Below, piece by piece: positions 1,093 through 47,845 of a stretch of DNA of 64,000 nucleotides (within the stretch, counting starts at the first letter, position 1; every line of letters begins with the position of its first letter). The translations under genes and the position numbers were made by a program. Below the pieces are notes generated by a model. The model searched no databases. It worked only from the letters and a program-made list of their open reading frames with translations, and was not told where the DNA came from. Source of the stretch: a virus. The stretch covers positions 1 through 64,000 of the IMG/VR virus record IMGVR_UViG_3300037086_000458; one strand, written 5' to 3'.

Positions 1093-1216
1093 GTTATAGG
1101 CCTTTTTTAAAAAATAAAGTGTTGCGACCCCTGTCCAAATTTAATATTAGCTCTACAGATAACCCGCAGAGAACAACATTACGGAGAATCCCCCACTACG
1201 TTGCGTACGCAATTAT

Positions 1217-1245
1217 AATATACTGGGAAATTCAGTAAATTTAAA
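1217..1245 (-). promoter_or_regulatory. Sigma70-like promoter TTTAAA-N17-TATATT
   Basis: The same hexamer pair with a 17-nt spacer recurs at 7098-7126 (-) and 44706-44734 (+). Confidence 0.55.
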
Positions 1246-1259
1246 TATAAAAAATAAAA

Positions 1260-1332
1260 TGGGCTAACAGGGATTCGAACCCCGAACTAACGGATTATGA
1301 GTCCGCTACTCTAACCATTGAGTTATTAGCCC
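1260..1332 (-). tRNA. tRNA with CAT anticodon, probably Ile2 (lysidine-modified); elongator Met not excluded; no encoded CCA
   Basis: GGGCTAATAACTCAATGGTTAGAGTAGCGGACTCATAATCCGTTAGTTCGGGGTTCGAATCCCTGTTAGCCCA folds into a full cloverleaf. Confidence 0.9.
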
Positions 1333-1396
1333 TATAAACAATAAATATAGTGTTTTAAAAGGTTTTAAATTTTGTTAAATTAAATGGGGCTTGTAA

Positions 1397-2692
1397 TTAC
1401 AAAGGAATAAATTTTCCATTTTTATTTCTCAAAAGCATCGGATTCTCTTTAAATGCAATATTACTATCAATCCAATTTAGTTTATTCCTGTCTTTAAAAT
1501 AGATTTGGGAATTTTCTTTATAGATATTGTCACCATAAAGAATATATGCTTTTAATCTGTGAATTTTTATATGCTTAACTGTATTATTATACGTAATATT
1601 AATAAAAGGATATTCACTTTTATTGTATATTATTTTTAATATCTTTCCTTTATGACTTATAACGTTGTTGCACCCATCAAAATGGTAACCTTTTTCTACA
1701 GCAAATTTTTCTAATTTATGAAAAGGAACCTTCCCTTTTTTTATAGATTTAACATACTTATGCTCGCTTTTAAGGCACTGTACGCTTTCATAGGCTGTTT
1801 CTAATATATCTGGACAGAAATTTTTCATCCACCTGTGGATTTTTTGATGATGCTTTTTTATTAATTTAGCTACTAAAGTAACCCATCCATATTTTGTAAA
1901 ATCAATATTACTACTCCTGATTTTAAAAATATTTTCTTTTTCTTTTTCGGCATACTCGTTTTTACGCTTTTTAAAATACTCTTCTTTTGACTGAATATTT
2001 TTTAATTTATGTTCAGCAAATTTATAAAGCCTACATTCTAAAATTTTTGTTTCGTATTTTCCAACATTGTTCAGAGTGTTTAAAAAATCTGATATTTTTT
2101 CCTGAGTAAGTTCATTAAATCGTATCCTATAGACTTTCCAGCCTCTTTCTACCAAAAGAGCTTGTTTTTTAATATCCCGATTTTGATTTTTAATATTTCT
2201 GAAGTGTTGTTTTCCATCCAACTCAATAGCTAATTTTACATTTAAAAAAACAAAATCTATAAAATACGGATATTCCGGGTACTCATTAATTATATCATAT
2301 TTTTTTAGTAAACTATGTTTGATAATGACACTATCAAAAAACCACTGTTCTATATAGCTCATTTCTCCATTTCTTCTTCTTTCCCATGCCGTTTTACCAA
2401 GTTTTTTCTTTAAATAATTGAATCTGGCGAGCCTTATCTTTTCTTTAGTTTCTTCTTTATATATCATTTTTATATGTGCATCTCGACAGATTTTATCTCC
2501 ACAGATAGAGCCGAATATGCTACCGTGTCCTCTATATTTACAATCTTTACCACATACCGGACATTTTGGTATTTCAAAATTTTCATGCTTAACTATGTAT
2601 TCCAAATAGGTGATATTATGAATTGTTTTTACATGTTGTGATAAAGTTATCTTGTTTGCACATTCTTTAGTACATATTTTACATTTTACCAT
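1397..2692 (-). CDS. Putative free-standing homing endonuclease (Zn finger + DUF559/Vsr-like nuclease + degenerate HNH-like C-terminus) inserted between tRNA genes
   Basis: CxxC..H..H finger; YFIDF...LAIELDGKQH...RDIKKQ..L..RGWKVYRI DUF559 motif; IHRL in the C-terminal part. Confidence 0.75.
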   Translation of the reverse strand: MVKCKICTKECANKITLSQHVKTIHNITYLEYIVKHENFEIPKCPVCGKDCKYRGHGSIFGSICGDKICRDAHIKMIYKEETKEKIRLARFNYLKKKLGKTAWERRRNGEMSYIEQWFFDSVIIKHSLLKKYDIINEYPEYPYFIDFVFLNVKLAIELDGKQHFRNIKNQNRDIKKQALLVERGWKVYRIRFNELTQEKISDFLNTLNNVGKYETKILECRLYKFAEHKLKNIQSKEEYFKKRKNEYAEKEKENIFKIRSSNIDFTKYGWVTLVAKLIKKHHQKIHRWMKNFCPDILETAYESVQCLKSEHKYVKSIKKGKVPFHKLEKFAVEKGYHFDGCNNVISHKGKILKIIYNKSEYPFINITYNNTVKHIKIHRLKAYILYGDNIYKENSQIYFKDRNKLNWIDSNIAFKENPMLLRNKNGKFIPL

Positions 2693-2693
2693 A

Positions 2694-2737
2694 AGTTGAA
2701 CCTTTACCCAGTTAATGTTTATAATAGAGGTTCGACT
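2694..2737 (-). promoter_or_regulatory. RBS-sequestering hairpin upstream of the endonuclease
   Basis: AGTCGAACCT (2737-2728) pairs with AGGTTCAACT (2703-2694), which lies just before the ATG. Confidence 0.55.
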
Positions 2738-2765
2738 ATTAGTAGATTAACAGTCTAAAAGGAAT

Positions 2766-2865
2766 TAGCGCGGATGGGAATCGAACCCATATTCCGGCCT
2801 TTCTTAGAGGACTTTTAATAATCCACTAAGAAAGGGCCGTATCCTAACCATTAGATGACCGCGCC
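2766..2865 (-). tRNA. tRNA-Glu(TTC) with a 28-nt insertion (2802-2829) in the anticodon loop
   Basis: Acceptor GGCGCGG/CCGCGCT, D arm ATCT-AATGGTTA-GGAT, anticodon stem CGGCC/GGCCG, T arm ATGGG-TTCGATT-CCCAT. Removing 28 nt restores the loop CT-TTC-AA and a 72-nt tRNA. Confidence 0.85.
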
Positions 2866-2892
2866 ATCAAAGGTGCTTCGCTTGATATAGAA

Positions 2893-2904
2893 TGTTAAAG
2901 AACA
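2893..2904 (-). promoter_or_regulatory. boxA antitermination element
   Basis: TGTTCTTTAACA, an 11/12 match to rrn boxA TGCTCTTTAACA, lying between the terminator and the first tRNA. Confidence 0.7.
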
Positions 2905-2917
2905 AATAAACTTATAT

Positions 2918-2960
2918 AAAACAAAAAACCCTACCAGGGGGTTTAGTCCTGGTAGGGTTT
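2918..2960 (-). terminator. Intrinsic terminator of a putative attenuator
   Basis: 13-bp stem AAACCCTACCAGG/CCTGGTAGGGTTT followed by TTTGTTTT. Confidence 0.8.
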
Positions 2961-2989
2961 GAGTTCTCTTTTTAGTAATGGCTCACCTA

Positions 2990-3055
2990 TCAGGACTGTG
3001 TTACATTCCCTCCGCGTTCTCTACCCGTACCTATATTCCTGATATTTTTAATCAT
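2990..3055 (-). CDS. Putative 21-aa attenuator leader peptide MIKNIRNIGTGRERGGNVTQS
   Basis: AAGGT SD 6 nt upstream of the ATG; the stop codon lies inside the anti-terminator strand (2986-2997). Confidence 0.6.
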   Translation of the reverse strand: MIKNIRNIGTGRERGGNVTQS

Positions 3056-3072
3056 AATTTTACCTTGTTACT

Positions 3073-3101
3073 AATATAACACTAAAAAGAAAAAAAATCA
3101 A
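3073..3101 (-). promoter_or_regulatory. Sigma70-type promoter of the tRNA operon
   Basis: TTGATT-N17-TATATT with an extended -10 TG. Confidence 0.65.
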
Positions 3102-3109
3102 GGATTATT

Positions 3110-3754
3110 TTATTCATCCTCCTTTTCCTCTTTTTTTCCTTCCATGATTTTTTTCCCTTCTAAGTATATCTCATTGTTAATTTCAATTGAGGTCATACCT
3201 CGAAGTTGAGCAGCTTTATTACTGATATTCTGTAAAAAAACATGATCAGAAAAATCAGGACTTTTTATTATTTTAGGTTTATTGCTCAGAGTATTAACAA
3301 AATTAATAATGGGTGCTCCAAAGGGTAATAATCCTGTGTATTTTTTAGCCTTCTCTAAATGATGCATAAGATAGTGCTTTAAGGGATACAGAATAGCCCA
3401 TCTAGCTTTCATATATGAGAAAGCTATTAAATCCTCAACGGAAGGATCTTCTGAAATGGCAATTCTGTACGCATCATTATTACTCGCCATAAGTTCTGAT
3501 CTTATTTTAAAGATAGTTACATCATTAGGGGCCATTTTAAAAATATCTAAATGGTCCGGATGTTGCCTTTCAGTAAGTACTCTTTTGGCTTCAAAAAAGT
3601 TAAAACCGTTATGTATGATTCGAGGCTGGGCGAGATAATAAATAAGATTGTTACCAAATCTACTTATCTCTCTGGTATTCCCTTTTTCATCTTTAAATAT
3701 TAAGTCGTAGTCGAATGAAGCGTGAAGTTCATAAATTTCTCTGAGGGTAATCAT
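3110..3754 (-). CDS. Hypothetical protein
   Basis: 214-aa ORF with AAGGAG SD. Confidence 0.75.
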   Translation of the reverse strand: MITLREIYELHASFDYDLIFKDEKGNTREISRFGNNLIYYLAQPRIIHNGFNFFEAKRVLTERQHPDHLDIFKMAPNDVTIFKIRSELMASNNDAYRIAISEDPSVEDLIAFSYMKARWAILYPLKHYLMHHLEKAKKYTGLLPFGAPIINFVNTLSNKPKIIKSPDFSDHVFLQNISNKAAQLRGMTSIEINNEIYLEGKKIMEGKKEEKEDE

Positions 3755-3860
3755 GAAGAATCTCCTTTGTTTTACGGTTCATGTTTGAAACGTTGTCCAG
3801 TCAGTATATCCCAACTGGGCATTACACAAGATTGTTTGTTGCTATTTATTTTTAACTCAT

Positions 3861-4273
3861 GATCCTCCACGAGAGGAAACCCACGGCTTTAGTCGTGGGA
3901 GGAATCGAGTCCTCCCACGACTGAGCCGGGAACCTGATAGAACTTAAAACCAAAACTCCTACAGGCTTACGGAATTCTGGACTCTATCTTGCCATTACTG
4001 GCAAGATAGGTAATTACTCCCTTCGAGACTGGCCTACGCAGAGGACGGGGACTTGGGAAGCATCCCTGACGTGCTCTGTCCTGCCACGGACAGTAGGCTC
4101 AGTTTCCTTCAAACGACCATTACCTGCCCTTACGGGCTTTGTATGGGTCCTTTCGGACGTCACGTTACTGATCTTGGACACTCTAGTCTCCATTTTGCTC
4201 TTGCAGAGCCCGTAGGGCTTGGCATTAGCCCTGACTCGAGGCAAGCCCACGACTTTAGTCGTGGGTAGTTGAC
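3861..4273 (-). mobile_element. Non-autonomous IS200/IS605 element carrying a complete IscB/IsrB-type omegaRNA and no nuclease gene
   Basis: End hairpins CCCACGGCTTTAGTCGTGGG and CCCACGACTTTAGTCGTGGG; flanked by TCAT (ATGA on the minus strand) and ending in GTTGAC. Confidence 0.85.
3960..4273 (-). ncRNA. omegaRNA scaffold (HEARO-like); 3' boundary approximate
   Basis: GTCAACTACCC start, GAGACT/AGTCTC long-range pair, GGATGCTTCCCAAGTCCC...CTCTG...CGAAGGG core, terminal hairpin CTATCTTGCCA/TGGCAAGATAG. Confidence 0.75.
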
Positions 4274-4298
4274 ATAGGACCCCCTTTCACTATCCTTA

Positions 4299-4327
4299 AG
4301 TATAACCTATTTTTGGTCATTTGTCAA
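4299..4327 (-). promoter_or_regulatory. Near-consensus sigma70 promoter directly upstream of the omegaRNA guide
   Basis: TTGACA-N17-TATACT. Confidence 0.75.
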
Positions 4328-9629: not shown

Positions 9630-9794
9630 CTATAGTTTATTACTTAAAAAAGCTTTATTTGCTGAGACTCTCCATCTTTTCCCGCAATGAGGGCATTTTC
9701 TTTTCCAGCTTACTCGCGGATGTTTTTTAGGAATATTGACCTCAAATTCTTTTCCACAGGAGATACATGGAATTTTTTTAACGTACTTTAACAT
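9630..9794 (-). CDS. Small Zn-ribbon protein (54 aa, not in the ORF track)
   Basis: MLKYVKKIPCISCGKEF...KCPHCGKRW. Confidence 0.55.
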   Translation of the reverse strand: MLKYVKKIPCISCGKEFEVNIPKKHPRVSWKRKCPHCGKRWRVSANKAFLSNKL

Positions 9795-10923
9795 TTAGTG
9801 TTGCTTTTTCGAGGATACGATAATCGTGAAGGTATCGTTCACAGGTTGAAAAGCAAAGCTCCTTGATTTTTTTAATATTTGGAGATTTTTGCAAGGGAAC
9901 AGTTTTATATAGTTCCCCGGCTTCGTCATCCAGTTTTTTTGCATATTCCTCAAGCTTGTCAAAAGGCCAAGACCCCTGCCGGATCTCTTTTAGTTCCTCA
10001 GCGTCGATACCTGTTCGGTCGACATTAACTTTGCCTGTCTCAAGGATTTCTTTACACATGCGAATTAAACGCACTAGGTGAGCCGCATGCTTTGTGTCAA
10101 AACCAAATTTCTCCTCGAGCACGGCCCGGGCCTTGTTTCTGCTTTTTTGCCATTGAAGGAACCGATCCCACTCATGCTTGGCCGTATAATATTTCAGTTC
10201 TTTCTCAGCCTCTTCTAAGAATTCGTCCTTGATGTAGGATGGCCCAAGATTTTTGAGTGTGTTGGCTTGGGACTTTATCCCAACTTGAAGATATTCCAGG
10301 GCCAGGGCCCGACGATCCTCTTTGATGAACCGGGTAAATAAAGGCATAAGGTAATTTGAGTAGACGTTATCAAGCTCGTCTAAAAAATTTTGTTTCTCAT
10401 CTTCAATAAAAAAATCACCCATAGCAGAATAAACTATTGCCTTGATTTGGGCAGTCGGAAATTTTGATTTTTCGGTAAGTCCGAAGCTCTCCCGAGATGG
10501 TTCAATTTTTAATGGGTTTAAGAGGTATTTCCTATGAGTTTTTATTCTTTCAAGCTGTGCATATGCGTAACCTGAGAAAGTATACCGGCATTTTTTTGAG
10601 ACAAACAGGTCTCTATTTTCAACAAAAACTTGCCAGAAAGGAGTCATCTTAACAATGCAACGTTCAGGGATGAACAAAAGGTCCATCATATTCGGATTGT
10701 TATCCGCGATGAGAGTAAGGGCCTTACGAATATCATAGATAGTTTTGTCTTCATCCGGGTAATCAGAGAATTGATCGAACTTATCCAAACCATAGAAATA
10801 CTCCGGCCCTGGGATCATAACACCTGTTTTGTCAAAATCTGAATCAGGGGTGCTGATGCCATAAGCTTGGCTACCTACGATTGCTTCAAAAATGGTATGT
10901 TCTTCTACGTATTTGACGTCCAT
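9778..10923 (-). CDS. Pol-beta-family nucleotidyltransferase (YcgL/RlaP-like)
   Basis: GSQAYG.STPDSDFD, NPN, FSGYA, FDTKHAAHLVRL, L..IR.G motifs. Confidence 0.85.
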   Translation of the reverse strand: MDVKYVEEHTIFEAIVGSQAYGISTPDSDFDKTGVMIPGPEYFYGLDKFDQFSDYPDEDKTIYDIRKALTLIADNNPNMMDLLFIPERCIVKMTPFWQVFVENRDLFVSKKCRYTFSGYAYAQLERIKTHRKYLLNPLKIEPSRESFGLTEKSKFPTAQIKAIVYSAMGDFFIEDEKQNFLDELDNVYSNYLMPLFTRFIKEDRRALALEYLQVGIKSQANTLKNLGPSYIKDEFLEEAEKELKYYTAKHEWDRFLQWQKSRNKARAVLEEKFGFDTKHAAHLVRLIRMCKEILETGKVNVDRTGIDAEELKEIRQGSWPFDKLEEYAKKLDDEAGELYKTVPLQKSPNIKKIKELCFSTCERYLHDYRILEKATLNVKVR

Positions 10924-11261: not shown

Positions 11262-14200
11262 ATGGCTGAAAAGATAAATTTGACAGATAATGCTAAAAAA
11301 GTTCTCGCCTTAAGATATCTTAAAAAAAATGATAATGGTGAACCGATAGAAGAACCTGAAGATTTATTTCTTCGAGTTGCAGAAAATATAGCATCTATTG
11401 AAAAAAATCCAGAGAAATGGACTAAAATCTTTTATGATGTTATGGCTAACTTAGAATTCCTCCCCAACTCCCCTACACTTATGAATGCCGGTCGTGAACT
11501 TCAACAATTATCGGCGTGCTTTGTGCTCCCTGTTGGTGATTCTATGGAGGAAATTTTTGAAGCAGTAAAGAACACGGCATTAATCCACAAAAGTGGCGGT
11601 GGAACTGGCTTCTCCTTCTCTCGTCTTAGACCCGCAAATGATCGAGTTAAATCCACTAAAGGAGTATCTTCCGGTCCTCTATCTTTCATGAAAGTCTTTG
11701 ATGTAGCTACCGAGACTGTTAAACAAGGGGGCTGTTTTGTTGGAGACACTTTAGTAGCTACGGTAAAAGGCCCTAGGAAAATTAAAGAATTAAAAAAAGG
11801 TGAATTATTATATAGTATGTCTGAAAAAGGTTATGTTCTACGTCCTTGTTCTGATTCCTGGCTAACTATAAAAAATGCAGAAGTATGGAAAATTACTACA
11901 GATAAAGGATTGATTATATATGCTACTAAAAATCATCCTATTATGCCAAAAGTTGATTTTGATTTTGAAAAGAAAAACTATGTTAAAATTGAAGATTTAA
12001 AACCTGGATTTTCTTTAATGTCTATGGGTAGCTATATTCATAAAATTGCATCTGTAGAAGTATCCCATATAGAAGATGTCTATAATGTTGAGGTGGAAGA
12101 TACACATAACTTTGTTGTATGTAATGATACGATGAGTACAGGTGTTGTTGTTTCTAATACTAGACGTGGAGCAAATATGGGGATTCTGGATGTCTCCCAT
12201 CCAGATATTTTAGATTTTATCAGTATTAAAGAAAAAGATGGTGTACTTTCTAATTTTAATATATCTGTAGCTATTACGGATGAGTTTATGAAGGCTCTGG
12301 AAGATGATACAGAATATCCCCTACGTAATCCTCGAAGTGGTCAAATTGTCTCATATTTAAAAGCTTCAGATGTCTTTAAAAAGATAATTAATTGTGCCTG
12401 GAAAAACGGTGAACCTGGGATAATTTTCATAGATAAAATTAATGATAAAAACCCAACTCCTCATGTAGGGAAAGTCGAAAGTACAAACCCTTGTCTTGCA
12501 GGGGAAACTTTAGTAGCAGTAGCCGATGGTCGCATAGCTGTTCCAATAAAACAATTGGCTGAAGAAGATAAAGACGTTCCTGTATATTGTCGGAATGATG
12601 AAGGAAAAGTCACTATTAGAATGATGAGACATCCTAGGGTTACTGCTGAAGAGGCAGAAGTTTATAATGTAACCTTAGATGATGGGAGTGTAATAAAAGC
12701 TACAGCTAATCATAAAATTCTTTTATCAGATAATCATATGGTAAAAGTTTCAGATTTAAAATATGGTGATAGTGTCCATATTTTAAATAAAAAACTAGCT
12801 TCTTTTCATGAAATTATTGAAAAATGTAGAACTACCTCTTTAAAAGAATATTATTGGATAAGTAATAGGCCGGAACATCGAATAATTTATGAATTTTATA
12901 ATGGGCCTATCCCTAAAGGGTATGTTATTCATCATTATAATTTTGATAGTAAAGATAATAGAATAGAAAATTTAAAGTGTATGACAGTAGAAGCACATAA
13001 TGACCTTCATAAAGAGGGCAAAATAGGTGATAAGAATCCTATGCGACGGGCCCAAACTGAATGGTCAGAAGAAAAATGGCAACAATATCATGATAATATG
13101 AGTGAAGCAGTTTCTGGAGAATTAAATGGCCGTTTTTCAGGGATTTCTAATGAAACTCTTTTTACTATAGCTGTTGAGCTATCTAAAGAGTATAAAAGAA
13201 AATTATCTGTACATGATTGGGAGCAGATTGCTCTTAAAAATGGATATCCTTCTCAATTTTCAGAATATAGAATTAAAGTATTTGGAACTGTAAGTGATTT
13301 TCTTGATAAAGCAGCGATTGTAGCAGAAGTGCCTGGAACAGGATTAAATCATGCGCATTTAACTGGGTTTATAAATTTCTTAAGGATTAAAGAGACTTCA
13401 GATCTAGACTTGTTTTTTGATGAAACATACAATGAGTGTATTCGTGTACGTAAGATTTGTGAAGGTTGTGGCAAAAATTTTATTGTTCCTTATTCTCATA
13501 GAGAGCAGGGATATTGCTCTATAAGTTGTGCCAACAAAAATAGAGAAATTACAGAATATGACTTAAGAAAAAGACGTGAAACTAAAAATGTTATAAGGGA
13601 ACAAAAAAGAATTCAACAAATTAATGCTTTTAATGATTTGAAACTTCAGATAGGTCGTATTCCTATGAAAAAGGAATACACTGTATATTGCAAGAATAAT
13701 AGGATACCTTTTAGACTCCCTGTAAAACGTGAAATTGCTAATGGTATATTAATAGGGACTTTCACAGATTGGGAAGATTTAAAAGAAAAATCTCTGCAAT
13801 ATAACCATAGAGTTGTTTCTATTGAATACGCTGGAAAAGTTCCTGTTTATAATGGAACTGTAGATGATTTTCATAATTTTTATTTTGGTGGTTTTAAAAA
13901 TATAGCTGACGGAAGAGAAAAAATTGTATTTATAAATGGAGAAAATTGTGGTGAACAGCCATTACTTCCTTATGAATCTTGCAATTTAGGTTCTATTAAC
14001 TTAATCAAAATAATTGACGAAAATAATGACATCAATTTTGATAAGCTTGAAGGTATCGTCAAAATAGCGGTAAGATTTTTGGACAACGTCATAGATCTTA
14101 ATAAGTACCCCCTCCCAAGTATTGATAAAATGACTAAAAGTAACAGGAAAATTGGTCTTGGTGTCATGGGATTTGCGGATATGTTGATTAAATTAGGCAT

Positions 14201-15389
14201 ACCCTATAATTCTCCTGAGGCTTTAAACTTAGCTGAAAAGATAATGAAATTAATACAAGAAAAAGGGCGGGAAGAAAGTCGTGCTTTAGCAAAAGATCGT
14301 GGAATATTTCCAAATTTTAAAGGTTCAATATATGACAATGGCCCTGAATTACGTAACGCAACTATAACAACTATTGCTCCTACGGGTACTTTAAGTATGA
14401 TCGCCAGTTGTTCATCAGGGATAGAACCTTTATTTTCCCTTGTGTATGAAAAGAATGTCTTGGATGGAAGAAAATTTTTAGAAGTCCATCCTGAATTTTT
14501 AAAGGTAGCGAAACAAGAAGGTTTTTATTCAGAGAATTTAATGAAACAAGTAATGAAGAGTGGGAGTATATCAGAAATCCAAGAGATCCCACAGAAAATT
14601 AGGGATACCTTTGTAACAGCTCATGATGTAGATCCTAAGACTCATATCAATATACAGGCGGCATTTCAAAAATATACTGATAACGCTGTTTCTAAGACCA
14701 TTAATTTTAGGCATGATGCTACGATAAAGGATGTGGAGACTGCCTATAAGATGGCTTATGAGTCGGGTTGCAAAGGGGTTACAGTATATCGAGATGGATC
14801 TCGAGGAAATCAGGTTATGACTGTTGGGTCTTCCGAGAAACCTAATAAAATTATTGCCAGAGATATTAAATTACCAACAATTTTTAATAATGGACCCACT
14901 CGTATAATAAAAAAGGAGGGCAAAAAATTCTATCTTCATTTCTCATACCTGCCTGAGGATACAAGGAATGAGTTCCCGGTTGTTTTTTGGATACACACTA
15001 ATGCCAAATATAAGGCTGATGAGTTAAAAGTGTGCAATAAAGCTGCTCGAAATCTTGCTACTCTAGCATTAACTAGTGGTGTAGACCATAAATTCGTTAA
15101 TGAAACCATTGATAAAGCTAATGCAGATTACCCCCATAATAGACTTGGCAGGATGGTGAGCCTATGCCTTCGTCATAATGTCCCAAGAGAAGATATTTTA
15201 GTTTCACTATCTGATATCGATGGGGATAATATCTCCACACTCTTAACAGCTGTTAGAAAATTTTTGTCTGAAACATTACCTAATGGTACCGTGTTAAGAG
15301 GTTTAAAGTGCCCTGAATGTGGGGCCGTACTAATAATGCAGGAAAATTGTAAGAGATGCAGTTCGTGTACGTGGACGGCATGTGGTTAA
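11262..15389 (+). CDS. nrdJ: Class II (B12-dependent) ribonucleotide reductase with two inteins
   Basis: PNSPTLMNAG, SACFV, GGGTG, RRGANM, NP/CGEQPL, TTIAPTG, SSGIEP, VSKTIN, KGVTVYRDG, C-terminal Zn ribbon. Confidence 0.95.
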   Translation: MAEKINLTDNAKKVLALRYLKKNDNGEPIEEPEDLFLRVAENIASIEKNPEKWTKIFYDVMANLEFLPNSPTLMNAGRELQQLSACFVLPVGDSMEEIFEAVKNTALIHKSGGGTGFSFSRLRPANDRVKSTKGVSSGPLSFMKVFDVATETVKQGGCFVGDTLVATVKGPRKIKELKKGELLYSMSEKGYVLRPCSDSWLTIKNAEVWKITTDKGLIIYATKNHPIMPKVDFDFEKKNYVKIEDLKPGFSLMSMGSYIHKIASVEVSHIEDVYNVEVEDTHNFVVCNDTMSTGVVVSNTRRGANMGILDVSHPDILDFISIKEKDGVLSNFNISVAITDEFMKALEDDTEYPLRNPRSGQIVSYLKASDVFKKIINCAWKNGEPGIIFIDKINDKNPTPHVGKVESTNPCLAGETLVAVADGRIAVPIKQLAEEDKDVPVYCRNDEGKVTIRMMRHPRVTAEEAEVYNVTLDDGSVIKATANHKILLSDNHMVKVSDLKYGDSVHILNKKLASFHEIIEKCRTTSLKEYYWISNRPEHRIIYEFYNGPIPKGYVIHHYNFDSKDNRIENLKCMTVEAHNDLHKEGKIGDKNPMRRAQTEWSEEKWQQYHDNMSEAVSGELNGRFSGISNETLFTIAVELSKEYKRKLSVHDWEQIALKNGYPSQFSEYRIKVFGTVSDFLDKAAIVAEVPGTGLNHAHLTGFINFLRIKETSDLDLFFDETYNECIRVRKICEGCGKNFIVPYSHREQGYCSISCANKNREITEYDLRKRRETKNVIREQKRIQQINAFNDLKLQIGRIPMKKEYTVYCKNNRIPFRLPVKREIANGILIGTFTDWEDLKEKSLQYNHRVVSIEYAGKVPVYNGTVDDFHNFYFGGFKNIADGREKIVFINGENCGEQPLLPYESCNLGSINLIKIIDENNDINFDKLEGIVKIAVRFLDNVIDLNKYPLPSIDKMTKSNRKIGLGVMGFADMLIKLGIPYNSPEALNLAEKIMKLIQEKGREESRALAKDRGIFPNFKGSIYDNGPELRNATITTIAPTGTLSMIASCSSGIEPLFSLVYEKNVLDGRKFLEVHPEFLKVAKQEGFYSENLMKQVMKSGSISEIQEIPQKIRDTFVTAHDVDPKTHINIQAAFQKYTDNAVSKTINFRHDATIKDVETAYKMAYESGCKGVTVYRDGSRGNQVMTVGSSEKPNKIIARDIKLPTIFNNGPTRIIKKEGKKFYLHFSYLPEDTRNEFPVVFWIHTNAKYKADELKVCNKAARNLATLALTSGVDHKFVNETIDKANADYPHNRLGRMVSLCLRHNVPREDILVSLSDIDGDNISTLLTAVRKFLSETLPNGTVLRGLKCPECGAVLIMQENCKRCSSCTWTACG
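11733..12158 (+). mobile_element. Mini-intein (142 aa, no endonuclease) in nrdJ
   Basis: QGG|CFVGDT...VYNVEVEDTHNF...VVSN|TRRGAN. Confidence 0.88.
12492..13946 (+). mobile_element. Intein (485 aa) with HNH endonuclease, inserted at the catalytic Cys of nrdJ
   Basis: TNP|CLAGET...ATANH...HRIIY..HH....DNRIENL...VYNGTVDDFHNF...GEN|CGEQ. Confidence 0.9.
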
Positions 15390-18603: not shown

Positions 18604-19704
18604 CTACAAATCCTTTTCAAGGATTTCTTTTATGAATAGGGCCCGGTGGGTGTAAGTATGGTTTTCTGAGATTTTTTTGTAGGCATTAAAAGCCATTGTT
18701 TCTCTTTTACGTTTACCCTCACCTATAAGATAATACTCAGCTGCTTTAGCTAAAGAGGGCCCATCTGAGAAGAACCCAACTTCTTTATCCGTGAAAATTT
18801 CATGAGCTTCTGCTCGGGTGTCATCAAGAAGCATGAATCCTTGGCATAAAGGCACCTCATAGGCCCTAGGATTTAAGCTTTCGGCTTGGGTAGGTATCTT
18901 GTAGGGGTTCTTATAAGAGTTGTTCCTGGCATTCCATTTGGGATCCCTGTGGATGTTTATAACTATCTTGGCCCCGTTATAATAACTTATGGTCTCTGCA
19001 TGAGGTACAGTCCTTGCATCAAACACATATTTCCAAAGAGGGGATTTTCTGGACATATACATCATATGACCACATATTTTGAAATTAAGCTTATATTTTT
19101 CTACGACAGGGATTAAATGTTCTAATAATTTTGCTCGGTTAGGGTATAAAGCCCCCAAAAAGAGGATATCACTATGATATTTTTTAGAGAGTTTGTTTAT
19201 TGGAAGCTTTCCGCATTCAAAAGTGCATGCAGCAGTAGGACAGTAATAAGTGTTTTTTAAATTTTCATTATTTCCTATGACACGTTCATTGGAGAAGTAA
19301 TAGTCTATGGAGTCTAAATTGTCCAAAAGGGGTTTACTTGTATGGGGGTCTTCGGTGGCGACTACTACATTTTTTATGTGATAGAGATTTTTATATATAA
19401 AAGATGGGATATTTAAACCACCAATGAACATTACGTGGGTAAAATTGTTGTCTTTAATCAGGGCGGTTGAGTGTGCTATATGGTAGCACATTTTTTCAGA
19501 TAGGACTTCTCTGAACTGGTGGTAGGGGAACCCTTCATAAGCGACCCCTAAGCTCTTAAAAGCTCTTTGATATCCATAATAAACATCTGTAAGAGCAAAA
19601 GAGGCTGTATCAGCTACCAGAAGTATCTTTAATTTTGGATCTTTGTTGTCTTTATGAGAGAAAACCCCAGGCTTTGTATTGATAGCTGAATTGAGTTTTA
19701 ACAT
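18604..19704 (-). CDS. Glycosyltransferase (CgeB/YkvP-like GT-B)
   Basis: DILFLGALYPNR, Y..AKIVINIHR, LNPRAYEV..C.GF, HTYTHRA. Confidence 0.85.
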   Translation of the reverse strand: MLKLNSAINTKPGVFSHKDNKDPKLKILLVADTASFALTDVYYGYQRAFKSLGVAYEGFPYHQFREVLSEKMCYHIAHSTALIKDNNFTHVMFIGGLNIPSFIYKNLYHIKNVVVATEDPHTSKPLLDNLDSIDYYFSNERVIGNNENLKNTYYCPTAACTFECGKLPINKLSKKYHSDILFLGALYPNRAKLLEHLIPVVEKYKLNFKICGHMMYMSRKSPLWKYVFDARTVPHAETISYYNGAKIVINIHRDPKWNARNNSYKNPYKIPTQAESLNPRAYEVPLCQGFMLLDDTRAEAHEIFTDKEVGFFSDGPSLAKAAEYYLIGEGKRKRETMAFNAYKKISENHTYTHRALFIKEILEKDL

Positions 19705-19901
19705 ATATAAATTGATTTTGTATGCTGGAGTAGATCCACTTCGAGGTTGTTTAAAGTCAGTACTTTATCCTGTACACTGAGACTTTGGTCTCTGTTTAAT
19801 ACAGAATTTTCAGAGCTACAGACTTGTGGAGTATCTGTAGGTGAGTTCTGGAACTTTACTTTAAACTTCTGCATAAGATTTCTCTTAAGCCCTCTAATCA
19901 A
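19698..19901 (-). CDS. Small hypothetical protein
   Basis: Fills the gap; GAGGG SD before the internal ATG (MQKFKV). Confidence 0.4.
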   Translation of the reverse strand: MIRGLKRNLMQKFKVKFQNSPTDTPQVCSSENSVLNRDQSLSVQDKVLTLNNLEVDLLQHTKSIYIC

Positions 19902-19923
19902 CTCTTACGTTGAATCTCACGAT

Positions 19924-20319
19924 TCAAGCCACGTTATTCTGTGGTAGCTGACGTACAGAAGTTCTCAATATTCCGGTTTCTTCCTCTACGGAATAAACCT
20001 GTATTATCTTATCTTTATTAAATCCTATATTCCTTGCAAGTACTTTTACTTTTCTATCTTTTAAATCAAATATCCCTGTCTGTGTAAAGAACCAATCTTC
20101 AGGTTTAATATGGGGATAATCGTTTTTATCTATTTTAATTATACTTTTACCTTGCCATAATAATTCAAGTGCCACTAATTCATTCTTATCAATCTCGGAC
20201 CAATTAGTGGCACATTTTTTTTGTAATTTGTTACTATAATAATTTTCTCTTTCTTTGGCTATGCTTCCATTAGCATAGTGAGCAATGAGCCCTGTGAAGT
20301 TAGGTTCTTTTTGGAGCAT
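19924..20319 (-). CDS. Hypothetical protein
   Basis: 131-aa ORF. Confidence 0.7.
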   Translation of the reverse strand: MLQKEPNFTGLIAHYANGSIAKERENYYSNKLQKKCATNWSEIDKNELVALELLWQGKSIIKIDKNDYPHIKPEDWFFTQTGIFDLKDRKVKVLARNIGFNKDKIIQVYSVEEETGILRTSVRQLPQNNVA

Positions 20320-37333: not shown

Positions 37334-37576
37334 TTACTTCTTTGATTTTAGATTGATATTAATTTTGAACAGGTGCAGGAAGGTATTCCGTAGACTCCAA
37401 GCTACTAAGACTATCCCGAAGCACATTAATATTACCACCAAGGCTGCACAGAATACTATACCGATCCACCTTATGACTACAAACACCATAGGCTCATATT
37501 TGCAAAATAAAATGATGCCTATGACGGATAATAAGGTTGGTGTAAAATAAAGAAGACCTTTAAGAACGTTTTTCAT
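37334..37576 (-). CDS. Small membrane protein
   Basis: Two hydrophobic helices. Confidence 0.55.
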   Translation of the reverse strand: MKNVLKGLLYFTPTLLSVIGIILFCKYEPMVFVVIRWIGIVFCAALVVILMCFGIVLVAWSLRNTFLHLFKININLKSKK

Positions 37577-38466
37577 AATACCCCCTTGATATACTCTTTT
37601 TTTACGTCTGTTATGATATATTCACCCTCTTCATACGTTGAAAATTTTAACCCATCCCCATATGCTTTTTTTGCATCGATTACTAATAAGGATATTTTGT
37701 CATCCATATGTACTGCAAATTTTTTTGCGAAGTTTGTTGCATTGTCCTTATTGCAGTAAAGTTTGATATATTTTTTTGTATTGCTAAAAATACCTTTATC
37801 TTTCATTTTGTTGGCTAAGTTTGTTAGGGTGCCAAAATAGAGCTCATCAGGAGGGCAGAGATACACTTTCAATTTATATTTAATAAGATTTTGGTCTTTA
37901 AATATTATTTTTCTATGCTTATCTTTAAAAAAGAGCTCTATGATGTGATTTTTGGTTATGTAGGATAAAAATGGCATTCTTTTTTTGATGGTTCCACAAA
38001 GATCGTTAACCTTAAAATATCCCTCCGTGTCTTTATCTAAACTAGCAATATTGTTACGTAGAAGATGCACTGAGGAAATAAGAGTGGTGTCTAAATCACT
38101 TTGACTTGAAAATAAGGTGGAGGTTGGCTTACCTACGTGTAATATTTCTGTTGCCTGAACCTGAGAGTCAATGTCATATTTTATGTAATCGTCATCTTTA
38201 AATGAAATTTTCCTTACCAGATCTTTGAAATAAAATTCAATGATGTGATTTCTGTTGATATAATATAAGGCTGGTATTTTGTCTTTTAAGGTGGATATTA
38301 TGTAATTTATTGGAAAAAATCCATCAGAGTCCATAGGAAGATAAGAATAAGCTGAATATAAAATTTCTACGGAAGCAGTTAAAGCCATATCAAGATCTTT
38401 TTGAGATTTATAGAAAGTAGGAGAAGGTCTAACATCAAGCTCGTTAAGGATCATTTTATTCCCCAT
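37573..38466 (-). CDS. Degenerate Tpt1/KptA (RNA 2'-phosphotransferase)-like protein with a duplicated N-terminal lobe
   Basis: LLRN...LD..EGYF; PPDELYFGT; KGI....KYIKL; LLVIDA...DGLKF....GEYI..V..EYI. Confidence 0.65.
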   Translation of the reverse strand: MGNKMILNELDVRPSPTFYKSQKDLDMALTASVEILYSAYSYLPMDSDGFFPINYIISTLKDKIPALYYINRNHIIEFYFKDLVRKISFKDDDYIKYDIDSQVQATEILHVGKPTSTLFSSQSDLDTTLISSVHLLRNNIASLDKDTEGYFKVNDLCGTIKKRMPFLSYITKNHIIELFFKDKHRKIIFKDQNLIKYKLKVYLCPPDELYFGTLTNLANKMKDKGIFSNTKKYIKLYCNKDNATNFAKKFAVHMDDKISLLVIDAKKAYGDGLKFSTYEEGEYIITDVKKEYIKGVL

Positions 38467-44642: not shown

Positions 44643-44739
44643 CTATATTTTGAAGAGTAATATGTTTCACTCATTTATGAGTGTATGAATTGAAATAAAT
44701 AAACCTTTAAAATTTGTTAGAATTACGTTATATTAGTGT

Positions 44740-45858: not shown

Positions 45859-47226
45859 ATGTTTGGAACAAAATACAGACCGTTAGATTTTGATAGTGTT
45901 TTAGGGTTGGATAATGTCAAGGACATATTGAAGGCTATCATTAAATCTGGTAGTTATGATCCGGCATATCTTTTTGAAGGGGACTATTCCTCAGGAAAGA
46001 CAACGTTAGCAAGGCTTTTTGCGAGGAGTATTTTATGTAATAATAAAAAAGATGATATGTCCCCCTGTAATGAGTGTCCTTCCTGCAAAGACTTCCTATC
46101 TGAAAGAAACCCTTCTTACATAGAAATAGATGCTGCTAACAACGGATCAAAAGAAAAAATCCAAGAGTTGTTGGAAAAACTAAAATATGAGACAGTATCC
46201 GGGGTTGTGATAATATTCCTGGATGAATGTCACGAAATAAGTAAGGCCGGTAAAGATGCTCTTTTAATAGAGCTTGAAAAGGAAAATAAGAACGTTATAT
46301 TCCTTTTTGGGACAACAAGCATAGATAAGATGCCACCTGAATTACGATCTCGCTGTGTAGAATTTCAACTCCCCCAACCAACCGAAGCCTACGTATTAAA
46401 AAAACTACAAAAAATCTGTGAATTAAATAGTCTTCAATACACTCAAGATGCTTTATTTACTATAGTACAATCTTCAGGGAGGCATTATCGTGATGCAGAG
46501 ATAAAACTTGAGGTAACTTCAAGATTAGGGGATATAAATGAAGAGAATGTCGCCAAAGTAGTGACACTGTATATTAAAGAGATAGCCTACTTATTGATAG
46601 CTTTGCCCTATGATCTATCCAAGACTTTTAAAGCCGCTGAGTACTTAATTAGTAGAATGAATATTAAAGATTTGTACGGAAATATACTTATGATGATTAA
46701 CGACACCATAAAGTATTCTCAAGGTTTTACTTTTGAGAGTGCTTCTTATGTAGAGATACTTAAGATGCTATCAAAGCAATACTCTGCTTCTGCGTTTGAG
46801 GTGCTAGATTATCTTCTATCGAGACAACGATTAAACGATCTCACACTTTTTCATTCTGATTTGCTTATTTTACATTATAAGTTCCTCCAAGGTCACTTTG
46901 ATAAAAAGGAGTTGGTTTTACCCAAAGTTGTTACTCCTAAAGTTTATCCCAGTAATAATGATGCTGAAAAAAAATCTGGTCGTGAAATAGGACTGGACTA
47001 TATAAATCAGCATGCCCCTTGGGAAAGGGAAGAACTTGTAAGACAGATTAAGAATAAAAAGTCTAAAGAGAATCAGGATAATCGCATAGAAGAGAATGTT
47101 TCTAAAGAATGGGGCCCTCAAATAAAAGGATCCACAGCTGACAGAAAAGCTATACTTAGAGGACAGATCACCAAGGAAGCTTTTAAAGAAGCTGTTAAGG
47201 GGTCTCTTGATGGGCTCAAAGTATAA
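45859..47226 (+). CDS. dnaX: DNA polymerase III gamma/tau clamp-loader ATPase
   Basis: KYRP..F..V.G, AYLF.G...GKTTLAR, PCNECPSC, EIDAA, LDECH, LRSRC, G..RDA. Confidence 0.92.
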   Translation: MFGTKYRPLDFDSVLGLDNVKDILKAIIKSGSYDPAYLFEGDYSSGKTTLARLFARSILCNNKKDDMSPCNECPSCKDFLSERNPSYIEIDAANNGSKEKIQELLEKLKYETVSGVVIIFLDECHEISKAGKDALLIELEKENKNVIFLFGTTSIDKMPPELRSRCVEFQLPQPTEAYVLKKLQKICELNSLQYTQDALFTIVQSSGRHYRDAEIKLEVTSRLGDINEENVAKVVTLYIKEIAYLLIALPYDLSKTFKAAEYLISRMNIKDLYGNILMMINDTIKYSQGFTFESASYVEILKMLSKQYSASAFEVLDYLLSRQRLNDLTLFHSDLLILHYKFLQGHFDKKELVLPKVVTPKVYPSNNDAEKKSGREIGLDYINQHAPWEREELVRQIKNKKSKENQDNRIEENVSKEWGPQIKGSTADRKAILRGQITKEAFKEAVKGSLDGLKV

Positions 47227-47845
47227 GAAAAGTATAGTAAAAGAAAAAGTCAAAAGAGCATACAAGAAAAAATCCTGCAAAGATATCGTCCCTGCCATTG
47301 AGAAAGAATTCCAGGATATTAAATATCGATTTAAGAATAATACCGAAAAATGGATGACCATAATTTTAAATGAGAGCTGTGTACTACTCGAATCCTATAA
47401 GGCCATTGAAAATGAAATAGAAGATCTTTTCGGAGAGGATACTATTTATTTCATTCCTGTATATATAGAAAAAGAGAATAATGCCGATATTGGATTCCAG
47501 TTGTTTGATGGATACATTTTTGTAAAGCGTTCCGAAGCCGCTAATAAAGAGTCTTTTAAAAAAACAGAACACCTCGATAAAATTCTGTATAAAGGCTCTA
47601 ACCCCTATTCTGCTACTAATAGAGATATTAACAAATTCAAGACTAAGATGAAATTGGATCTCATTAAAAGAATCCCTAAAAAAGGATCTAAAATAATAGC
47701 TAAAGAGGGTACTTTTAAGAATCAAGAGGGTACTGTTTTGTCGGTAAATACAAGGAAGAAAACAGCAATAATTGAATTTCGTAAGAGGACAAGAATAGTC
47801 ACAGCTAAATTATCAGTTATAAATTTTGAACTGAAGGATGATTAA
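47207..47845 (+). CDS. NusG-family transcription antitermination factor
   Basis: NGN (FIPV...LFDGYIFV) and KOW (KGSKI...EGTFKN.EGTV) motifs. Confidence 0.78.
   Translation: MMGSKYKKSIVKEKVKRAYKKKSCKDIVPAIEKEFQDIKYRFKNNTEKWMTIILNESCVLLESYKAIENEIEDLFGEDTIYFIPVYIEKENNADIGFQLFDGYIFVKRSEAANKESFKKTEHLDKILYKGSNPYSATNRDINKFKTKMKLDLIKRIPKKGSKIIAKEGTFKNQEGTVLSVNTRKKTAIIEFRKRTRIVTAKLSVINFELKDD

Follow-up and report, generated by a model that had tools for sequence, protein, structure and literature searches.

The element studied here is the control region of a tRNA-endonuclease-tRNA unit within positions 1 to 64,000 of IMG/VR virus record IMGVR_UViG_3300037086_000458. This stretch, called the window below, makes up the opening 64 kb of a viral contig of 86 kb. 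Read from the minus strand, as are all features of the attenuator and the tRNA unit, the region holds a promoter-like site, a 21-codon leader open reading frame (ORF), an antiterminator strand over the stop codon, an intrinsic terminator, an rrn-type boxA, an interrupted tRNA gene, an endonuclease gene, and a tRNA(CAT) gene. The elements are present, their RNA segments have alternative pairings, their combination is not random, and no promoter lies past the terminator. From this layout we put the chances at about even that the window carries a working ribosome-mediated attenuator of the trp type, followed by an rrn-type boxA, which together gate the interrupted tRNA, the endonuclease, and tRNA(CAT). 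In such a device the leader would be translated, the switch would be kinetic, the boxA would bind Nus factors, and the physiological signal would be slow translation generally, that is, the overall progress of ribosomes and not the reading of one codon. The source is a very large uncultured peat phage, present as a fragment; by CheckV the contig is 18% complete, which implies a genome of ∼480 kb.

A first-pass annotation of the window, made by a model from the letters alone, had proposed ribosome-mediated attenuation. All the sequence features that it named could be read directly at their minus-strand positions, and the order of elements, from the ORF and the antiterminator strand that spans its stop codon through the terminator and boxA to the tRNA, has a geometry that fits the proposal, as judged from prefix folds, masked folds, a joint test, and a comparison across the contig. 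Four RNA segments are involved. Region 2, the 5′ antiterminator strand AGTCCTGATAGG (2986-2997), spans the stop codon and is complementary at 11 of 12 positions to 2956-2945. The latter is region 3, CCTACCAGGACT (2945-2956), which covers the 5′ arm and the start of the loop of the terminator and is common to antiterminator and terminator. The 2:3 duplex has a free energy of -16.9 kcal/mol compared to -11.3 ± 2.3 kcal/mol in 1,000 dinucleotide shuffles of the 106-nt leader (p ∼0.02). The terminator itself (2918-2960) has a 13-bp stem (2960-2948 with 2938-2926) and a 9-nt loop and is followed by TTTTTTGTTTT, with the T-run reaching to 2918; at -21.7 kcal/mol, this 3:4 hairpin is the most stable terminator-like hairpin of the 86-kb contig. 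Region 1, the anti-antiterminator TATCAGGA (3037-3044, leader codons 4 to 7), is an addition to the elements listed in the first pass and completes the four-segment layout of the trp type. Both the prefix folds and the minimum free energy (MFE) structure at full length pair it with 2995-2988, and the 1:2 duplex of -11.2 kcal/mol was equalled by 4.5% of the shuffles (p ∼0.045).

Folding the leader with and without a ribosome constraint gave the switchable pairing that had been predicted. In the prefix folds, the 1:2 pairing was present before region 3 existed, 2:3 took over for transcript ends at 2944-2935, and 1:2 together with 3:4 was found at full length. When a ribosome was simulated as a 30-nt footprint masked from folding, the antiterminator formed for an A site at codons 2 to 16 and was lost from codon 17 to the stop. 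The fold of 3070-2880 as a whole was somewhat more stable than its shuffles (z = -1.83). Viewed as DNA, the four related segments (TCCTGATA, TCCTGATAGG, and TCCTGGTAGG plus complement) form two inverted-repeat pairs of one ∼9-bp motif, as might be expected if they were DNA operators, bound by a protein of the phage or of its host, and not RNA pairing partners. This reading is very improbable in our view: one of the pairs plainly belongs to a T-run terminator, there is no further copy of the motif in the first 8 kb, and the 40-nt and 9-nt spacings are unlike those of a symmetric operator.

The alternative pairings suggest how the leader would operate. A transcript that starts at 3066, or that reads in from the upstream gene for a 214-aa protein, would carry the 21-codon ORF. 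If a ribosome stands at codon 17 to the stop as the 5′ arm of the terminator emerges, region 2 would be covered, the 13-bp terminator would form, and transcription would end at ∼2918. With a slower ribosome, whose A site is still within codons 2 to 16 (which include ATA, AGA, and GAA), regions 2 and 3 would pair, the terminator would be blocked, and the polymerase would read on. The boxA would be transcribed 13 nt later and, by analogy with rRNA operons, may recruit NusB/NusE and other Nus factors; Nus-loaded elongation through the untranslated tRNA/endonuclease unit would resist Rho. The enterobacterial trpL, pheL, hisL, thrL, and leuL attenuators share the short ORF, the segments pairing 1:2, 2:3, and 3:4, the intrinsic terminator made of 3:4, and the masking of region 2 by a ribosome that has come to the ORF's last codons. 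The helix energies at the window locus are of the same order as those of trp. Unlike these attenuators, the locus would gate tRNAs and an endonuclease in a phage rather than biosynthetic enzymes, its leader has no run of cognate codons, and a boxA follows the terminator. The proposed mechanism is of a known kind in a new setting.

Further analysis addressed the combination of these features. The joint layout was defined as a 2:3 pairing of ≤-15 kcal/mol, an ORF that opens with ATG, is at least 10 codons long, and has its stop in region 2, and a 1:2 pairing of ≤-8 kcal/mol inside that ORF. It was found in 2 of 3,000 shuffles and at 1 of the 12 terminator-like hairpins of the contig (the leader's own), figures that are indicative only because the criterion was devised after the site had been seen, a weakness of the case for the attenuator. 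At the 11 other hairpins, upstream complements ranged from -4 to -14 kcal/mol compared to -16.9 kcal/mol here. The best single argument for intended read-through is the position of a promoterless unit behind the strongest terminator of the contig. A scan for sigma-70-like sites gave no promoter between the T-run (2918) and the tRNA (2865), and therefore the boxA and the tRNA are reached only via terminator read-through. Read-through at this site is probably meant to happen and controlled. A second promoter between the terminator and the boxA was considered and rejected; apart from the lack of a sigma-70-like site there, a 7/8 match by eye to the Bacteroidota -7 box would start transcription inside the boxA.

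The rrn-type boxA, TGTTCTTTAACA (2893-2904), is on the sense strand; it begins 13 nt past the T-run, and 27 nt separate its end from the tRNA. It matches the Escherichia coli rrn boxA, TGCTCTTTAACA, at 11 of 12 positions. In the 64-kb window TGTTCTTTAACA is a single copy (0.01 expected), and the 86-kb contig has no other close copies. The class was tested by scanning IMG/VR for the core 10-mer TTCTTTAACA located 60 to 90 nt before a tRNA T-loop, with the reversed 10-mer as control. The core was found before tRNAs in 115 viral stretches compared to 20 for the control, which makes boxA-like motifs a recurrent feature in front of phage tRNA genes. The 115 stretches fall into 46 sequence families. 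Among these the unconstrained base at -1 is G in 35 and the base after the core is A in 29, which means that the match to the boxA consensus extends beyond the core, and TGTTCTTTAACA fits the resulting phage tRNA-associated consensus G-TTCTTTAACA-A. In most families the order is promoter, small hairpin, boxA, and tRNA, which is the layout of rRNA leaders, and at most boxA-tRNA loci a promoter, not a terminator, directly precedes the boxA; a few families resemble the window locus in having a terminator directly 5′ of the boxA. With regard to boxB and boxC, the sole hairpin upstream of the boxA at the window locus is the terminator; in several other phage loci the boxA has a separate small hairpin ahead of it, which follows the promoter or the terminator. 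This recurrence leads us to regard boxA as a genuine and widespread element in front of phage tRNA genes and the window copy as probably functional. Nus factors would be expected to bind it as they do in rRNA operons (PMC4807359, PMC6614797). As in rrn leader antitermination (boxB-boxA-boxC with NusB/NusE/NusA/NusG/SuhB; PMC4807359, PMC6614797, PMC10250234), the boxA lies on the sense strand just 5′ of a stable-RNA gene. It differs in its setting, a phage, in preceding only tRNAs, in directly following a terminator and not a promoter, and apparently in having no separate boxB or boxC. A role for the phage's own NusG had also been suggested, and this link to the boxA found no support. The gene at 47207-47845 (plus strand, 212 aa, adjoining a clamp-loader-like gene) encodes a NusG-family paralogue closest to the UpxY/LoaP types (UpxY E = 4e-8, LoaP 8.5e-8, both far below the cut-offs). 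As far as is known, paralogues of this specialised kind work from recruitment sites of their own and not at boxA.

Comparable layouts were found in other phages. First, an independent lineage of five contigs (L114, L130, L131, L060, and L129) has, in this order, a promoter, a 40- to 42-codon ORF, an antiterminator at the stop codon, a terminator, a small hairpin, boxA variants, and a tRNA; in L060 a promoter takes the place of the small hairpin. The promoter of this L114 lineage is TTGACT-N17-TATAAT, the ORF is open in two sequence variants with indels in multiples of 3 nt, and the terminator shows two compensatory base-pair changes. The element order of promoter, short ORF with its stop touching the antiterminator, terminator, boxA, and tRNA is the same as at the window locus. 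Second, the 34 tRNA genes of the 485-kb uncultured phage LR745208.1 (region 140000-203000) are grouped into amino acid-specific blocks, and many blocks stand behind a TTGACA-N17-TATACT promoter and a short ORF in which the cognate residues are overrepresented. Examples are the leader MNQHLHHHCY before a Tyr-Cys-His block (p = 1.2e-5), MRFFTTTRTRTAGLTRKG before three Thr tRNAs (p = 2e-4), an Ala/Pro-rich ORF before a Pro-Ala block (p = 2e-5), and an Arg/Gly-rich ORF before an Arg3-Gly2 block (p = 1.6e-4). No boxA copy within one mismatch was found near the LR745208.1 tRNA blocks. From these sequences, leader-ORF control of tRNA blocks exists as a class in large phages, which does not imply that the window copy works: the L114 lineage has compensatory changes and LR745208.1 has cognate-rich leaders, whereas the window leader has neither.

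The leader ORF of the window, MIKNIRNIGTGRERGGNVTQS (2990-3055; ATG at 3055, TGA stop at 2992-2990), is the sole minus-strand ORF of at least 20 codons between the upstream gene and the terminator. It is preceded by a sigma-70-like promoter (3073-3101) with the -35 sequence TTGATT (3101-3096), a spacer of 17 nt whose last two bases are TG (3081-3080), and the -10 sequence TATATT (3078-3073). The predicted start is at ∼3066, and the site scores 9/12 with an extended -10 TG. A weak Shine-Dalgarno (SD) sequence, AAGG (3063-3066), lies 7 nt 5′ of the ATG and has an anti-SD pairing energy of -3.9 kcal/mol. Two candidates for a genome-wide promoter consensus, TTGACA-N17-TAnnnT and TTTG...TAnnTTTG, were both uncommon in the contig, and no motif in common with the leader promoter was seen. 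The extended -10 promoter-like site and the strong terminator bracket a discrete unit (∼3066-2918, ∼150 nt), and this unit might be a gene of its own, for a small RNA or a 21-residue peptide unrelated to the tRNAs. The stability of the 3070-2880 fold would agree with that. However, an Rfam scan of the leader gave no family at threshold, and the best match (Phe_leader, 31 bits compared to a gathering score of 55) was discounted because its alignment rests mainly on the terminator plus AU-rich pairing. The peptide is hydrophilic and too short for protein searches, and the boxA and promoterless tRNA would be left unexplained; we regard a separate gene as improbable. A T-box leader was also looked for, and no covariance-model match was found at E values up to 5 in 2870-3130.

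The first gene of the gated unit (2766-2865) had been taken for a tRNA-Glu. It is a tRNA by Rfam (49.8 bits) and has a Glu-like body; the part of the claim that needs revision is its anticodon loop, which holds 31 nt where 3 are expected. A 28-nt self-complementary insert (2829-2802, or one base further 5′), unique in the window, leaves 35 nt between the strands of the anticodon stem. The gene folds as a cloverleaf, with the anticodon arm drawn out into a 17-bp hairpin (z = -5.65) in which the anticodon is base-paired to a GAA within the insert. Excising 28 nt would give the loop CUUUCAA (UUC, Glu) or, one base further 5′, CUUUAAA (UUA); the latter anticodon would read the stop codon UAA, as an ochre suppressor. 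Standard ARAGORN misses this gene and with the intron option calls the anticodon tta with a 28-nt intron. We tentatively favour Glu over UUA on the basis of the contig reading well in the standard code and of the 4-nt variable loop, which is typical of bacterial tRNA-Glu. Two identities for the insert were rejected. An archaeal/eukaryal bulge-helix-bulge intron at 37/38, with its two 3-nt bulges around a 4-bp helix, does not agree with an insert at 35/36 or 36/37 in a predicted arm whose 17-bp helix is almost unbroken, a single 1-nt bulge and a single U-U mismatch aside, and a group I intron was likewise set aside. With regard to relatives, a pattern scan gave just normal tRNA-Glu genes, whose acceptor stem fits the pattern by chance, an exact 24-mer had zero matches, and neither window tRNA showed anything past generic tRNA similarity to the tRNAs of LR745208.1. 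That phage has two odd tRNAs of its own, at 142196-142269 (TTA in the presumed anticodon loop by eye; no ARAGORN call) and at 142332-142406 (a 4-base anticodon, ttta, by ARAGORN). Forced-intron ARAGORN calls at other phage loci were false calls only.

The remaining two genes of the unit are more conventional. A free-standing homing-endonuclease-like gene of 431 aa occupies 1397-2692 (Pfam DUF559, 1.1e-9; PHROG HNH endonuclease, 4e-4, residues 343-412), and a tRNA with anticodon CAT occupies 1260-1332 (ARAGORN; Rfam 72.4 bits). The latter is either Met or, if modified to lysidine, an Ile tRNA reading AUA. A free-standing homing-endonuclease gene among phage tRNA genes is also a feature of phage T4, whose tRNA region holds SegB; the window endonuclease differs in being of the DUF559/HNH type. 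To our knowledge, neither an attenuator nor a boxA has been reported from the T4 tRNA cluster. The insert that buries the first anticodon, the free-standing endonuclease gene within the unit, and the existence of flanking-gene relatives without the cassette could all be explained if the whole cassette were a decaying mobile insertion whose control elements have no present function. Such decay is hard to reconcile with two intact cloverleaves (72.4 and 49.8 bits), an endonuclease ORF open over 431 codons, and an exact boxA match. In addition, the identical stretch is found in peat, permafrost, freshwater, and bioreactor sequencing runs of several studies, with zero variants and zero joints in the contigs compared, and we consider decay highly improbable.

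Several observations weigh against a working attenuator. First, in the masked folds the terminator is always favoured at equilibrium, which means that any switch must be kinetic. The trp attenuator likewise works kinetically. The ribosome-free MFE structure at intermediate transcript lengths is already the antiterminator, and this makes the no-translation state ambiguous. Second, the signals for expression of the leader are unremarkable. Promoter-like sites of this class occur in the region at chance frequency (30 seen compared to 31.4 expected, the TG being present in just 2 of the 30), and the SD sequence is average for the phage: 39% of phage genes have an equal or weaker one, and 19% of random ATGs have one as good. 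Third, the leader holds one ATA and one GAA codon, which had been put forward as the codons that the two downstream tRNAs would read. The identities of both tRNAs are uncertain, and the 'Glu' tRNA may not read GAA. The match is at chance level (P = 0.36 in 20 codons; 0.075 in a 7-codon control window). Ile and Glu together make up 4 of the 20 leader codons, near background; in the phage as a whole, Ile is most often encoded by ATA (39 per 1,000 codons) and Glu by GAA (51 per 1,000). Codon statistics thus gave no cognate-codon enrichment of the leader, unlike the matched leaders of LR745208.1. Fourth, the first gated tRNA cannot decode unless the 28-nt insert is removed, which weakens the reading of the unit as a source of backup tRNAs and suggests a second control step. 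Fifth, two metagenome contigs that carry 57%-identity homologues of the upstream gene, found with a five-homologue profile, do not have the tRNA unit; in both, the homologue ends in its own terminator and faces a convergent gene. Closer homologues of the upstream 214-aa protein exist (68% and 53%). In viral contigs the same profile found nothing; the protein itself had one weak 34-residue match, in a 439-kb contig without a tRNA match. Neither a methyltransferase search nor tblastn against GenBank phages gave relatives of the locus. Since no relative of the whole locus was found in the viral, metagenome, and GenBank phage collections, this copy has no support from conservation or covariation. 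Conservation of the ORF/antiterminator/terminator/boxA order was seen, with compensatory changes, in the L114 lineage; for the window locus, whose retrievable upstream-gene relatives are without the tRNA unit, it found no support. Finally, the RNA library provides three short contigs, none of them over the terminator, the boxA, or the tRNA-Glu.

Many of these points are also what one would expect if the hairpin were an ordinary, perhaps leaky, terminator of the upstream operon. The ORF and the complementarities would then be due to chance, read-through would be constitutive and partial, the boxA would protect the transcripts, and there would be no translation sensing. The terminators found directly after the upstream-gene homologues, the thermodynamic dominance of the window terminator, the lack of cognate enrichment, and the plain SD and promoter sequences are in line with this explanation, and the 2:3 duplex taken alone reaches p = 0.02. 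An RNA-library contig (3026-3171) runs from the upstream gene over the putative promoter into the ORF, which means that read-in from upstream could also supply the leader. However, the hairpin does not adjoin the upstream gene but lies 150 nt past its stop codon, and the joint layout, apart from its rarity in shuffles (2/3,000), was seen at none of the 11 other terminator-like hairpins. A stable-RNA unit with a boxA 13 nt behind the contig's strongest terminator and without a promoter is hard to explain without regulated read-through, and analogous regulated layouts occur in other phages. On balance, a plain terminator is the main rival to the attenuator but appears rather unlikely.

If the attenuator does work, a classic mechanism of amino acid operons has been reused in such a way that tRNA output tracks ribosome speed, and stable-RNA units of phages draw on the Nus machinery of the host. 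The leader of the window copy is not codon matched, which would point to sensing of the general translation rate, if it is working at all. A literature search turned up nothing that describes leader-peptide attenuation or boxA antitermination of tRNA genes in phages. Phage tRNAs have been discussed as codon compensation and as replacement for host tRNAs cut by defence nucleases (PMC10264068, PMC11555353), and the control of their expression is barely addressed in the current discussion. The first-pass annotation had named the firing of host anticodon nucleases as a possible trigger. That idea would fit the published view of phage tRNAs (PMC10264068, PMC11555353); it is pure conjecture, and nothing in the sequence bears on nucleases. 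Attenuation and Nus recruitment are both directly testable with small reporters. More broadly, we tentatively suggest, as a possibility somewhat short of an even chance, that large phages set their tRNA supply by ribosome feedback, using a test ORF, a kinetic switch, and a borrowed boxA. To this would be added a masked first tRNA, whose anticodon is paired to a codon mimic in cis and which would need a second processing step, giving a two-layer conditional production of tRNA. The insert might be processed by RNA-repair-type enzymes encoded on the same contig, for which there are two candidates. One is an RlaP-family nucleotidyltransferase at 9778-10923 (minus strand; Pfam 9.6e-23), and the other is a protein with a Tpt1/KptA-like C-terminal domain at 37573-38466 (minus strand; Pfam 4e-6; NCBIfam 1.5e-11, below the cut-off).

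The contig has a coding density of 89%, reads well in the standard code, and has clear SD sequences on most of its genes. Apart from the RlaP-type nucleotidyltransferase and the Tpt1-like domain, its phage genes include a ribonucleotide reductase with inteins, UvsX, a RecD2-like gene, and a terminase. By terminase, the closest GenBank phage is LR745208.1 (33% identity), and the second closest is an Acidobacteriota (Tunturiibacter) phage (27.5%). The ribonucleotide reductase large subunit (11262-15389, plus strand) is split by intein/Hint modules, one of which has an HNH endonuclease. The motif TGTATGAATTGAAAT and its variants are repeated 5′ of plus-strand genes, including structural ones, at 44643-44739 in the window and at 64763-64853, 69427-69528, and 70648-70751 (plus strand) of the contig, and may be a phage-specific late promoter. 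A GC-rich noncoding element at 3857-4327 (minus strand) has a weak HEARO/omega-RNA match (20 bits) and is preceded by TTGACA-N17-TATACT at 4327-4299 (11/12). Positions 1 to 62 of the window are an 84%-identical copy of part of this element. A full HEARO RNA (102.7 bits) is located at 19730-19952, directly upstream, in the RNA sense, of a 366-aa ORF (18604-19704). Finally, the spacer between tRNA(CAT) and a methyltransferase gene (1093-1259, minus strand) forms two stable hairpins (-38.2 kcal/mol, z = -2.63) behind TTTACT-N16-TATAAT at 1239-1212 and is a candidate for a small RNA or a 5′ leader.

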